DNA from: Blastocatellia bacterium
GTDB taxonomy: Bacteria > Acidobacteriota > Blastocatellia > RBC074
Length of the DNA stretch: 64,000 nucleotides
NCBI GenBank assembly: GCA_043736395.1
Contig: JAYTCQ010000354.1
Coordinates: 3,723-67,722, forward strand
Direction of reading: 5' to 3'
Part shown: positions 41,100 to 44,615 of the stretch, piece after piece
Layout: every line of letters begins with the position of its first letter
Numbering within the stretch: the first letter of the stretch is position 1
Notes under the pieces: generated by a model
Told to the model about the DNA's origin: nothing
Seen by the model: only the letters and a program-made list of their open reading frames with translations
Databases searched by the model: none
Made by a program: the position numbers and the translations under genes

Positions 41100-44000
41100 C
41101 TAATTTTCAGTTCCACCAGGCGTCAAGTTGGCAAGAATCTGCTCAGGATTAAAGGTCTGAACATTTGGCAAAGCCGCAGTTTTTTGTGATGAATGATTCA
41201 TCACGACGCCTTCCTGCAAATCAACTTTGAGCGATGCCGGCATTGGTACAGATGGATCGCTTGCCGTAGCCTTAAAGTAATATTTGGAAAGTCCCAATAA
41301 AATTGCGATGTAGCGCGAGGCTTCCACCAGCTGCAATTCCATCTCTTCACTATGATTCAGCGTCTCTTCATATTTTTGGAGCAAGACCTGATTCTCTTTC
41401 AAAAAAGCATTGGCTTCCGTTTTAGCAATTTCACCGTCGTCCCAACTCTGAATCATTTGTTGCAGTTTCACCTGTAGAGATTTGTTTTCTTCCAGTAATT
41501 CACGATTTTCGGCAAGGATATCCGTTTCATCATAAATGCCGCGCTCCAGTTGTGTGATGCGTCCTCTGGCTTCGTTAATCTTCACAGAAAGCGTTTGATT
41601 TTCGGATTTCAATTGCTTGAGCAGACTCTCTTGCGTTTCTAATTTATCTACCTGCCCAAGCATCGTCTCTACTTTCACTTGCAATGTTTGATTCGCCTGC
41701 AATAGCTCTGTATTTTCTGATTGTGCAGATTCAATAATGGAGCTGCGTAAAAGTAATTCTTCTTCAATCAAATCAATCACTGCTGTCAGTTCGTTTTTAT
41801 CAATGCTGAGCTTCTGCCATTGGCTAACTGCTTGTTGTAATTTTTCCTGCACCCCAACAATCTCTTTATTTTTCTCTGAGAACTGCGAATCATACTCATC
41901 AATTAAGAGAGATTTTTCTGCAAGCTCAGCTTTTAAGATGCTGATTTCCTCCACTTCTTTTCGCAGTTGCTCAATTAACGACCGGGCGGATTGCAGCTCT
42001 GCATTAAGTCTTGTGTGCTCCGTGCGAAGTTGTTCGACTTCAAATCTGGCAGTTTCATTTTCCTTCACTAACAGTTCATGTTTAGCGTGAAGTTCCTGCT
42101 GCGCAGATGTCAGTGAAAGATTTTGTTGTTTCAGAAGGTTGCTGTTTTCTTCTAACGTTTGAATAGAAAGCCGTAGTAATTCAACGATCTTTTCGTGCTC
42201 AGCGATTTTACGAACGGATTCCTCACGAAGACGCTCTGCTTCGTTATTCACTTGTCTGACTTCCTGCTCAAATTGCTGCTCTTTCTCAGCCATTTGTGCT
42301 TCCGTATGGCGCAATTTTTCTTCAGCTTTTTGGATTTGAGCCGTACTGCTTTCTTTCTCTGTAGCAAGTTCTTTTCGCAGTAAGTCCAATTCCGTCGTCA
42401 GAGAAAAACGTCTTTCATCAGCCGTCTTTAAATCATTCTCAAGTTCACTGGAGCGGCGTTCCAGAACCACTGCTTTTTCAATCAACTCCTGAGTTTGCGC
42501 GGTAATTTGTGCTTTCGACTGTTCTTCAATCTGATTTATTTGAGCGACGTGGGCGGCTTTGGTCTCCGCTTTTTCAGCGGCAAACTCTGCGCTGAGGCGT
42601 TGCATTTCATTGGTATGTGAAAGCGTCAGATTAGATTTTTCGGCAGCGAGTAATTCACGCAGTTGTTGCAACGCAACCTTATGCTCGGCTTGACGTCTTT
42701 CCTGTTCACTGCTGGCTCGTGCTTCAATCTCATTTTTCTCAGCACCGAATTGTTCACGCAGCCGCTGACATTCATTGGCATGCTTCGCTTCCTGTTCGGA
42801 TTCCTCGCGCGCAAAATCTGCTTTCAATTGTTCCGATGCGCTGGATTGTTGACTCTGGAGTGTTGCGAGTTTCTCTTCAAATAAATTGTTCGCTTGCGCC
42901 AGCGCTGCCTGATGCTCTGAGAGCAAGAGGTTTTTCTCTTCGCTGAACTGTGCTTCCAACTGCTGCCGAGTCGCCTTATTTGACTTCTTTAATTCCTGCT
43001 GATGCTGCGCAACCAGTTGTGATTTTTCTGTCTGGAAATTTTCTTTAAGAACGCGCTTACATTCAGCGATGTCTTCTTCGCTTTTTGCCTGAACAGCCTG
43101 CGACGCCGCACGCAATGACTCTATTTCCTGCTGGTGAGCCAGCTCACTGCTTTCACGTGCTTGTGCAAACTCTTCTGCCTGTTTTTCCTGCTGCTCTTGC
43201 TGTGCCTGCAATTTAATTTGCAAGGATTCAATTTTAGCGTCAGAGGCAGTCTGTAATTCTTCCTTCGCCTTCGCAGCCTCACTTAGCATCAGTGCGTGTG
43301 AAGCATTGATCGTTTGTAATTCTTCGGCGTGGGAATCTTTCAGGTTGGTAATTCCCTGATTAAATTCCTGCTGCAACTTTTCTACCTGCTTCTCCAACTC
43401 TTCTTGCTGTGTCTGTATCGCAGTTTGCAAGGATTCAATTTTAGCGTCAGAGACAATCTGTAATTCTTCCTTCGCCTGCGTTGCTTCACTTAACAACTGT
43501 GCGTTTGAGGCATTCAGTGTTTGTAATTCTTCAGCCTGAGAATCTTTCAGCCCCGCAATTTCCTGCTGCAAGTCCTGTGATAATTTTTCTCTTTGTGAAT
43601 GTGCTTCTGCTACTTCCTGTTGCAGAGCTTCAAGCTGTTGCGCTGAAGCCGAATGCAACGCCTCTTCAACCTGAGCAATCTCGGCTAACGTAAGCGAATG
43701 CGAAGAATGAAGTTCCTGTAACTCTTCATCCTGCCTGGACTGAAGATCAATAATTTCCTGCTTCAGTTGCTGCTGCTGCGTTTCTTCCTGCTGTAATTTT
43801 TCGTTGAGCGTTTGCAGCTCAGCCGATAATTCCTCAGACTTTTTCGTTTCGGCAAGGTGTTCATTTTCAACGACCGCGAGCCGTTCTTTTAACGAAGCGG
43901 ATTCGTTATGAATTTCCTCTAGTTGACGCTGCGCAATAGACTGGAGAGCTTCGGAAGCAATCGTTACTTCACCCAATGTTAATGAGTGTGAAGAGTTGAT

Positions 44001-44615
44001 TGCTGCAAGATTGGATTCATATTCCGAACTGGTCGTCGCGAAGGTTTCGCGTAGTTTTCTTATTTCTTTTTCTACATCTGCACGACGATTCTGACTGTCG
44101 GCTAATTGTGCTTTCAGCTCTTCAATTTCGGTAATAAAACTGTTCTTGTCGCGCTTATTTTCTTCTGGAATAACTTGCGGAGTCAGCCCCGCAGCTTCAC
44201 GCGCACAGGCCAGCAAATTTTCAAACGGAGGTTCACTTGTATTTCTAGTTTCCGCAATCATTACTTTGGGATGAAATGATCGCAGAGTTTCGGCCTGTTC
44301 TCCCCATAAAGCAACCGCAAGAATTATTTTCTTCGCATCGCGTGCCCGAATCTGCTCGACAACTTGTACAGCATTCTTAATGGCACTTTGATCTTCTTCA
44401 GAGTTAACCGCTGCTCCCAAAATAATGGCATCTGCTTTGGCCATTGTCAGTAAAGCCGACGAAGAGCCAGCTACGCACGGAACGAACTTTACCTTGCCTG
44501 ACAGATCAAGCGTGGCGGTGTCATCCAGGCCATATTCGGACAGAGATAACCCGTTGATTAAAGTTCGCAGGTCGGGGGCTGCTGCGATTACACCAATTTG
44601 AAATTGTGAAGCCAT
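41100..44615 (-). CDS. ~1170-aa coiled-coil protein: ~150-aa N-terminal globular domain, long SMC-like coiled coil built partly of 69-aa repeats, short C-terminal domain.
   Basis: Start taken at internal ATG (MASQFQIGVIAAAPD...). Repeats 'AEELQTLNASNAQLLSEATQAKEELQIVSDAKIESLQTAIQTQQEELEKQVEKLQQEFNQGITNLKDSH' / 'AEELQTINASHALMLSEAAKAKEELQTASDAKIESLQIKLQAQQEQQEKQAEEF...', plus 2-3 degenerate upstream copies ('LQELHSSHSLTLAEIAQVEEALHSASAQQLEAL', 'NLAAINSSHSLTLGEVTIASEALQSIAQRQLEEI'). Confidence 0.7.
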   Translation of the reverse strand: MASQFQIGVIAAAPDLRTLINGLSLSEYGLDDTATLDLSGKVKFVPCVAGSSSALLTMAKADAIILGAAVNSEEDQSAIKNAVQVVEQIRARDAKKIILAVALWGEQAETLRSFHPKVMIAETRNTSEPPFENLLACAREAAGLTPQVIPEENKRDKNSFITEIEELKAQLADSQNRRADVEKEIRKLRETFATTSSEYESNLAAINSSHSLTLGEVTIASEALQSIAQRQLEEIHNESASLKERLAVVENEHLAETKKSEELSAELQTLNEKLQQEETQQQQLKQEIIDLQSRQDEELQELHSSHSLTLAEIAQVEEALHSASAQQLEALQQEVAEAHSQREKLSQDLQQEIAGLKDSQAEELQTLNASNAQLLSEATQAKEELQIVSDAKIESLQTAIQTQQEELEKQVEKLQQEFNQGITNLKDSHAEELQTINASHALMLSEAAKAKEELQTASDAKIESLQIKLQAQQEQQEKQAEEFAQARESSELAHQQEIESLRAASQAVQAKSEEDIAECKRVLKENFQTEKSQLVAQHQQELKKSNKATRQQLEAQFSEEKNLLLSEHQAALAQANNLFEEKLATLQSQQSSASEQLKADFAREESEQEAKHANECQRLREQFGAEKNEIEARASSEQERRQAEHKVALQQLRELLAAEKSNLTLSHTNEMQRLSAEFAAEKAETKAAHVAQINQIEEQSKAQITAQTQELIEKAVVLERRSSELENDLKTADERRFSLTTELDLLRKELATEKESSTAQIQKAEEKLRHTEAQMAEKEQQFEQEVRQVNNEAERLREESVRKIAEHEKIVELLRLSIQTLEENSNLLKQQNLSLTSAQQELHAKHELLVKENETARFEVEQLRTEHTRLNAELQSARSLIEQLRKEVEEISILKAELAEKSLLIDEYDSQFSEKNKEIVGVQEKLQQAVSQWQKLSIDKNELTAVIDLIEEELLLRSSIIESAQSENTELLQANQTLQVKVETMLGQVDKLETQESLLKQLKSENQTLSVKINEARGRITQLERGIYDETDILAENRELLEENKSLQVKLQQMIQSWDDGEIAKTEANAFLKENQVLLQKYEETLNHSEEMELQLVEASRYIAILLGLSKYYFKATASDPSVPMPASLKVDLQEGVVMNHSSQKTAALPNVQTFNPEQILANLTPGGTEN
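43217..43630. repeat. Tandem DNA repeat, 207-bp unit (2 near-identical copies, ~85% identity) inside the coiled-coil gene.
   Basis: 'tttgcaaggattcaattttagcgtcagaggcagtctgtaattcttccttcgcc...' at 43217 recurs at 43424. Confidence 0.6.

Follow-up and report, generated by a model that had tools for sequence, protein, structure and literature searches.

A long coiled-coil protein encoded between a bilin module and a gas-vesicle operon in a Blastocatellia bacterium: a member of a small unnamed family and a possible signalling adaptor

In a Blastocatellia bacterium (Acidobacteriota; GenBank assembly GCA_043736395.1, contig JAYTCQ010000354.1) a gene coding for a very long coiled-coil protein of 1171 aa lies between a bilin-related signalling module and a cluster of gas-vesicle (gvp) genes, which raises the question of which of the two the protein serves. 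The gene, hereafter the target, occupies positions 41100-44615 on the minus strand of a 64,000-nt stretch (contig positions 3,723 to 67,722), hereafter the window. A previous reading made without database searches (the sequence-only reading) had located it between the signalling module and the gvp genes and directly upstream of the latter, which is correct in transcription order, there being 17 nt from the target stop codon to the ATG of the next gene, u209; from this position it had proposed a scaffold- or ruler-like role. The relatives of the target adjoin bilin-pigment and signalling genes and not gvp genes, and therefore a signalling adaptor is likelier than a gas-vesicle scaffold. That the target belongs to the signalling module rather than to the structural proteins of gas vesicles is likely, and we put a probability of about one half on its being the adaptor or output arm of a pre-PcyA/BBAG-type bilin module now joined to a gas-vesicle operon; that it actually controls gas vesicles is a tentative proposal.

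The target is a real gene coding for an N-terminal α/β head, a long helical rod and a tail. It is a single unbroken open reading frame (ORF) with an ATG at 44615 and a TAG stop codon at 41100-41102. A TTG-extended form would reach 44636; the ATG at 44615 is the correct start because the initial Met is found at the same place in all the homologues of the alignment and because the gene as called independently in L014, a public contig, codes for the same 1171 aa. The head is a conserved α/β domain of aa 1-145 (44181-44615, minus strand), hereafter the N-domain, delimited by the alignment and an AlphaFold2 (AF2) model, so that the α/β domain of about 150 aa noticed from the sequence alone is real, conserved and about 145 aa long. 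The rod comprises aa ~151-1085, or about 930 aa (41361-44165, minus strand; composition and heptad analysis), and is followed by a non-coiled, non-helical-looking C-terminal tail of about 85 aa (aa 1086-1171; 41103-41360, minus strand), which contains a short hydrophobic patch, YIAILLGLSKYYF, and for which no homologues were detected. The protein is rich in Glu (15%), Leu (13%), Ala (11%) and Gln (11%), with Pro or Gly occurring only once per 60-300 residues in aa ~151-986. Hydrophobic enrichment at heptad positions a and d is 0.41 compared to 0.25 in 50 shuffled sequences (about 10 standard deviations), the signal being strong in aa 151-430 and 711-1046 and, as far as large hydrophobic residues are concerned, absent from the Ala/Gln/Glu-rich middle (aa 431-710). 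Together with the duplicated 69-aa units described below, this enrichment bears out the description of the target as a giant coiled-coil protein with internal duplications. The target gave zero matches against Pfam (E ≤ 10), NCBIfam, PADLOC and PDB sequences, and no DHp/HATPase_c catalytic core is present in it according to the Pfam search.

An exhaustive HMMER search with the N-domain over 1.84 billion cluster representatives returned 11 matches, nine of which are true relatives (P0002-P0008, P0010 and P0011), the other two being repeat-protein artefacts that were set aside. The relatives resemble the target through the N-domain only, at 29-40% identity, and their rods, ranging from about 200 to 950 aa, are not alignable in sequence. 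Five of them (P0002, P0005, P0007, P0008 and P0010) possess a C-terminal HATPase_c domain, while P0003, P0004, P0006, P0011 and an additional family member from the metagenomic locus L013 have no catalytic domain, like the target. The target is a member of a small unnamed family defined solely by the N-domain, and it stands in the kinase-less branch of this family. Both relatives with source names derive from Blastocatellia (Acidobacteriota) metagenome-assembled genomes (MAGs). A hidden Markov model (HMM) scan of all the fetched DNA showed one N-domain gene per locus. Word-index homologue searches with the N-domain and with the family alignment returned no matches, this method being too insensitive at 30-40% identity, and a scan of the genome collection with the full target protein found nothing. 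A small α/β head carried by a coiled-coil stalk with an optional kinase is a known kind of protein: five paralogues share with coiled-coil-linked sensor histidine kinases the succession of an input-side domain (here the N-domain), a stalk, an H-box-like helix and HATPase_c, whereas a kinase domain is missing from the target, whose rod is 3-4 times longer. As half of the members have a histidine-kinase ATPase at the end of the stalk, the most fitting reading of the N-domain is that of an input or docking domain, with the coiled coil serving as a dimeric transmission stalk or scaffold.

In the 10-sequence alignment residues C47, G67, A68, A100, W104 and G105 of the N-domain are invariant and D62, P129 and P130 nearly so, and the target keeps every invariant residue. 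The AF2 prediction from a single sequence was poor (pLDDT 50), and a model based on the 10-sequence family alignment was used in its place (pLDDT 78.5, pTM 0.74); it consists of five strand-helix units. In a Foldseek search Ras, Rho and Rab proteins were top-ranked (E about 5e-5, TM about 0.5), the scores of the predicted fold being a little higher for G domains and TIR than for receivers. However, the family differs from Ras-like GTPases (e.g. MglA) and from pseudo-GTPases in having neither nucleotide-binding motifs nor profile similarity to H-Ras: the family alignment shows no conserved copy of the P-loop GxxxxGK[ST], of DxxG or of NKxD, the family profile gave negative hhalign results against both H-Ras and CheY, and the modelled domain lacks the extra strand hairpin of G domains. 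Nor is a receiver domain (PF00072) recognisable in the target head by Pfam or by hhalign against CheY, and a profile search against PDB sequences found nothing. Given the negative profile comparisons and the missing GTPase motifs, the N-domain is a new sequence family on a generic three-layer α/β fold; the wording "pseudo-receiver, flavodoxin-like or GTPase-like" of the sequence-only reading is thus fair as a description of the fold, with no sequence link to Ras or CheY behind it. On the AF2 secondary-structure map the conserved residues fall on the C-terminal ends of strands b2, b3 and b4 or close to them. The C-terminal strand ends are the usual ligand- or partner-binding face in such folds, and the conserved face is a putative ligand or partner site in the model. 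A defence-system reading, prompted by a top match to a TIR domain, was set aside, since PADLOC matched neither the target nor u209, nor u167, with which the array described next begins.

All the genes upstream of the target that are considered here lie on the minus strand. Immediately preceding it, with the stop codon 42 nt upstream of the target ATG, is the gene for a pre-PcyA-like ferredoxin-dependent bilin reductase (FDBR; 44658-45464), preceded in turn by genes coding for an ABM-domain protein (45476-45784; both by domain search) and a Ser/Thr protein kinase with an uncharacterised C-terminal domain of aa 307-469 (45839-47317). Further upstream is the core BBAG-type module (47404-50428), which consists of V4R-B (47404-48120), a phycobiliprotein-like globin (48078-48590), V4R-A (49234-49905) and a 2Fe-2S ferredoxin (49943-50428), with a gene for a 204-aa protein (48599-49213), also called as a gene in L014, between V4R-A and the globin. 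The array begins with u167 (50425-50928), which belongs to no Pfam family. The Cys of the globin is found in the sequence RYCALAM and not in a CXRD motif. BBAGs are regarded as ancestors of phycobiliproteins. The 204-aa protein carries an internally duplicated motif, LSLAVRPWKDTLQFLSG / LSLAVQPWKNLLAWLSG, and has no family match. A canonical haem oxygenase, which is optional in the BBAG cluster definition, was not found among the cluster genes; the ABM protein is present, and it is not clearly an IsdG-type haem-degrading enzyme, for of the Asn/Trp/His triad of IsdG it lacks the Asn, and its homologue does not keep the His.

A core cluster of an Fe-S protein, two V4R proteins, a BBAG and an FDBR has been described by Rockwell, Martin & Lagarias (2023, PMC10151467), the function of BBAGs being stated there to be unknown, and by the definition given in the searched passages of that paper the upstream block is a complete pre-PcyA/BBAG-type module, with the same Fe-S protein, two V4R types, globin and FDBR. 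It differs from the clusters of those passages in being fused to a gvp operon and in containing the ABM protein; neither a coiled-coil protein nor gas vesicles are mentioned in them. The counterpart operon of Synechocystis, slr0144-slr0152, ends with the Ser/Thr kinase SpkG (slr0152) (PMC11863333), and since a Ser/Thr kinase is likewise present in the window, this kinase is probably an old member of the bilin module. In the literature searched there is no description of the N-domain family or its u167 partner, of the link between this family and BBAG/pre-PcyA clusters, or of a cluster of this kind fused to gvp genes.

Loci, several of them spanning at least 20 kb, were fetched for seven of the relatives (P0007 and P0010 were left out) and for the L013 protein, and no gvp genes were detected in any of them. 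The kinase-less P0003 (locus L001) is encoded directly downstream of an FDBR homologue with 52% identity to that of the window, and a homologue of the C-terminal domain of the window kinase is located upstream of this reductase and P0003. P0008 has homologues of V4R-A and V4R-B (43% and 38% identity) directly upstream. In the neighbourhood of the kinase-less P0006/P0134, a gene for a PATAN-like protein is followed by those for a 458-aa protein with a C-terminal u167 domain, an ABM protein (59% identical) and P0006; for P0002, P0005 and the L013 protein the order is PATAN-like protein, a protein of about 315 aa with a C-terminal u167 domain, and the N-domain protein, after which the genes pilB-pilT-pilC-pilS follow in L005 and L013. 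According to an HMM scan the u167 domain adjoins the N-domain gene in five of the nine distinct family loci, the window included, and in the four of these five other than the window it is encoded immediately upstream of the N-domain gene or one gene away from it; a metagenome scan with the u167 domain found a single locus, L013. The N-domain family is genetically part of a signalling neighbourhood and not of gas-vesicle clusters.

The triad of PATAN-like, u167-domain and N-domain proteins recurs at L005 8038-12442, L011 8078-12508, L013 8517-12317 and L002 3686-9416, its PATAN-like proteins showing a weak DUF4388/PatA_N match. The gene order in L005 and L013, where the triad stands directly upstream of the pil genes, suggests a pilus- or motility-related signalling unit in Acidobacteria.

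On the other side of the target lie u209 (208 aa; 40456-41082, minus strand), for which there is no Pfam or NCBIfam model, and the gas-vesicle cluster (29008-40453, minus strand; domain search), the HSP20 start being at most 17 nt from the u209 stop codon. The cluster codes, in this order, for HSP20/GvpH-like and Cdc48-like AAA proteins, two GvpF/L proteins, GvpA, a 249-aa repeat protein, GvpN, a 107-aa protein of no assigned family, a further GvpF/L, GvpG, an ArsA-like ATPase, GvpK and a GvpJ/A-like protein. The u209 family is large and uncharacterised, with 1967 matches, several named members coming from Terriglobia/Acidobacteriia MAGs, and u209 stands at the head of gvp clusters of the HSP20-Cdc48-GvpF/L type. 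Four comparable gvp clusters were found. In L012, a Victivallales MAG and the single locus found by a genome scan with GvpF/L, the gene order is that given below for L024 and L025, Cdc48 is 70% identical to that of the window, and a PAS histidine kinase and a LuxR-type regulator are encoded upstream of u209, in the place held in the window by the bilin module and the target. L024 and L025 start with u209, preceded by about 1.1 kb without called genes, and continue with a fusion of a response regulator and a sigma54 activator, HSP20, Cdc48, two GvpF/L proteins, GvpA and, further on, GvpN. In L026 u209 is divergent from a block coding for a LuxR-type regulator, a sigma54 activator, a PAS kinase, a receiver protein and GvpA. 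Two-component or sigma54 regulators are thus present in all four clusters, and the target gene is absent from all four. Absence from related gvp loci had been named by the sequence-only reading itself as an observation that would speak against a functional link, and absence is what was found; with no gvp genes detected in the fetched loci of the relatives either, the proposed scaffold or ruler role was not upheld.

A sigma54-type promoter-like motif, TGGCAC-N5-CTGCA, is located 98 nt upstream of gvpA (36050-36065, minus strand), and TGGCA[CT]-N5-CTGC[AT] also precedes gvpA in L024 (16732) and L025 (8563), at about 100 nt, and in L012 (11316), at about 60 nt. The motif is kept in the window whereas the in-cluster sigma54 regulator is missing from its gvp cluster, and for this reason gvpA probably needs an activator encoded elsewhere in the genome.

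All the genes between 52456 and 29008 are on the minus strand, starting with MnmA, after which there is a 373-nt gap before u167. From u167 to the second GvpF/L there are 16 co-directional genes (50928-36146, 14.8 kb) with no gap longer than 86 nt, with 42 nt between the reductase and the target and 17 nt between the target and u209, and no terminator-like site was found between the genes on the minus strand of the array. This arrangement suggests that the target is probably co-transcribed with the bilin module and the gas-vesicle assembly genes.

How might an adaptor at this position work? The N-domain would read in what state the bilin/V4R/kinase module is, through contact with a partner (u167, for example) or once phosphorylated by the neighbouring kinase, and the long rod would act as an adaptor that localises or recruits downstream proteins, here probably the neighbouring gas-vesicle assembly factors. 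The closest likeness is to the pseudo-response regulators FrzS and AglZ of Myxococcus xanthus, which, like the target, combine a small (βα)5-type head devoid of catalytic or phospho-acceptor residues with a very long coiled coil; FrzS works through partner binding by its head and localisation by its rod (PMC11580455, PMC1974792). The output of the kinase-less branch would likewise be a protein-protein interaction or localisation, as in FrzS. Paralogues of the target also adjoin type IV pilus and PATAN-like genes. The target differs from FrzS and AglZ in that its head is undetectable as a receiver domain and in that it is linked to bilin and V4R genes and, in the genome of the window, to gas-vesicle genes. 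Standing in the place of the regulators of comparable clusters, the bilin module and the target may pass a bilin-dependent signal on to the assembly of gas vesicles, and the target may in this way take part in the control of buoyancy.

Several points weigh against the target being an output arm of this kind. Co-transcription is deduced from short gaps only, and gvpA has its own sigma54-like promoter, so that its expression is probably independent of the target. The linkage to signalling genes is not universal, P0004 and P0011 being types found in unrelated neighbourhoods, and the family is tiny, with about ten distinct types, which makes the neighbourhood statistics thin. Finally, an assignment of the N-terminal half of the u167-like proteins to Roadblock/LC7, presumed solely from a VPGVxGA motif, was confirmed neither by Pfam nor by the search of PDB sequences.

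The neighbourhoods and the head also bear on other explanations of the target. If it were a landmark of the FrzS/AglZ type, polar or cytoskeletal and under bilin or kinase control, its output would be pili, polarity or cell shape, and its adjacency to gvp genes would be incidental; we hold this to be rather unlikely. It agrees with the α/β head on a long coiled coil and with the paralogues encoded together with PATAN-like and u167-like proteins directly upstream of pilB-pilT-pilC-pilS in L005 and L013, and in FrzS the head binds SgmX while the coiled coil localises to the pole (PMC11580455). However, no pil genes are present among the annotated ORFs of the window, the head is unrecognisable as a receiver both by Pfam and by hhalign against CheY, and the 17-nt junction with u209 together with the missing in-cluster regulator argues for functional coupling to the gvp genes here. 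A quite doubtful variant of the signalling view makes the N-domain a new sensor, in which a pocket formed by Cys47, Gly67-Ala68 and Trp104-Gly105 would bind the bilin made by the reductase, or a bilin-loaded BBAG/V4R complex, and the rod would couple this signal to gas-vesicle assembly. If true, it would be the first physiological output assigned to BBAG/pre-PcyA clusters, and would mean that buoyancy is under bilin-dependent control, by light or redox, in a non-cyanobacterial organism that is probably an Acidobacterium.

A role as scaffold, ruler or tether of gas vesicles, in which the number of repeats would fix a length or spacing on the model of GvpC, is improbable. The target is indeed a long repetitive helical protein encoded immediately upstream of the gas-vesicle assembly genes and probably co-transcribed with them, and the hydrophobic patch in its tail could be a binding helix, but the four gvp clusters of the same type do without it, neither the loci of the seven relatives nor L013 yielded a gvp gene, and half of its family are histidine kinases. 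It does not match the GvpC family of Pfam, nor is it significantly similar to the 249-aa repeat protein in the slot between gvpA and gvpN. GvpC, which is located on the outer surface of gas vesicles, is likewise a repetitive helical protein encoded in or next to a gvp cluster, whereas the target has repeats of 69 aa and of about 22-33 aa that are unrelated in sequence to those of GvpC, and is absent from related gvp clusters. The repeats of the GvpC family are 33 aa long. The 249-aa protein (34856-35605, minus strand; no Pfam match), which has two repeats of about 32 aa (EV.TMQE.FRV.HAEMA...) and an Ala-rich C-terminal half, is by position and repeat size the better GvpC candidate. It is very improbable that the target is what remains of a histidine kinase after loss of the catalytic domain, decaying while its rod drifts and duplicates without function: kinase-bearing paralogues suggest that their architecture may be ancestral, and the rod sequence is unconserved among the relatives, yet the 3.5-kb ORF is intact with all the invariant N-domain residues kept, the protein is identical in an independent assembly and a 99.6%-identical variant has two substitutions, one of them synonymous, the heptad patterning is far above that of shuffled controls, and there are five other kinase-less members (P0003, P0004, P0006, P0011 and the L013 protein). 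Hardly credible at all is an SMC-like "chromosome segregation ATPase", the label given by JGI to the cluster of P0006; relatives also show weak PADLOC matches to the coiled-coil arms of JetC/LmuB, but these are confined to their coiled coil, with none for the target, and the names are artefacts of coiled-coil composition, as the target has no Walker motifs, SMC_N, hinge or any other Pfam or NCBIfam match.

The rod of the target has been lengthened through internal duplications. A 207-nt direct tandem pair (43168-43374 and 43375-43581, minus strand; repeat search) encodes two tandem 69-aa units, aa 341-409 and 410-478 (43182-43595, minus strand). The two 207-nt units are at best 78% identical over 207 nt, about 82% over the best 180 nt and 72% at the register 43217/43424, whereas the next best offset within the target gene gives 55%, which places the pair well above background; Tandem Repeats Finder (TRF) did not report an array of 207-nt units. 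The tandem units announced by the sequence-only reading therefore exist, at a lower identity than the approximately 85% it gave; its "near-identical" 69-aa repeats share 67% of their residues, and of the further degenerate copies it mentioned two are present, with the core motif at aa 207 and 303 and spacings of 96 and 65 residues instead of 69. A second family of shorter repeats, which the sequence-only reading had not mentioned, with the motif L+e.F.aEK....H and spacings of 21-33 residues occupies aa 527-700 (42516-43037, minus strand). Recombinational length variation had also been expected from the 207-nt pair. The longest identical run shared by both units is 29 nt, and the pair is therefore an old, diverged duplication, a marginal substrate for recombination and no obvious contingency locus. 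No variation in copy number was seen, in what is a weak comparison with the one other assembly that spans the repeat and is 100% identical. Coiled-coil repeats are by themselves ordinary.

Six public metagenome assemblies, among them Logan SRR23617148 and ENA ERZ28573537, contain the locus with an identity of 99.1-100%; window positions 30456-51082 correspond to L014 and L015, and the locus is also present in L016-L019. The two substitutions of the 99.6%-identical variant are too few for an estimate of dN/dS. The exact target protein was reported absent from the protein collection and the proteins of its neighbours present. Among the gvp genes, the one between gvpG and gvpK codes for a tandem-domain ArsA-like ATPase of 647 aa (29970-31913, minus strand). 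Divergent from the MnmA/bilin array, on the plus strand at 52584-56645, are genes for a CbbQ/NorQ-type AAA ATPase and then for a 1043-aa VWA-domain protein, beyond which an HNH endonuclease and a Thg1-like tRNA-His guanylyltransferase (57882-58652) are encoded. Other genes of the window code for CarboxypepD_reg + OMP_b-brl_4 receptors, an extracytoplasmic function (ECF) sigma factor (PF07638) and NamZ, a gene content that agrees with an origin in Acidobacteriota without proving it.

Annotation of the target as a structural protein or ruler of gas vesicles should accordingly be avoided. The locus brings together in one tightly packed array a complete BBAG/pre-PcyA module, a Ser/Thr kinase, an undescribed adaptor-like protein and a gas-vesicle operon. 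The N-domain family and its recurrent u167-domain partner are newly defined here and open to biochemical study. For the BBAG module, the function of whose BBAG, V4R and Fe-S proteins is stated to be unknown in the searched passages of PMC10151467, the locus yields a testable hypothesis of its output, namely that it may be buoyancy.

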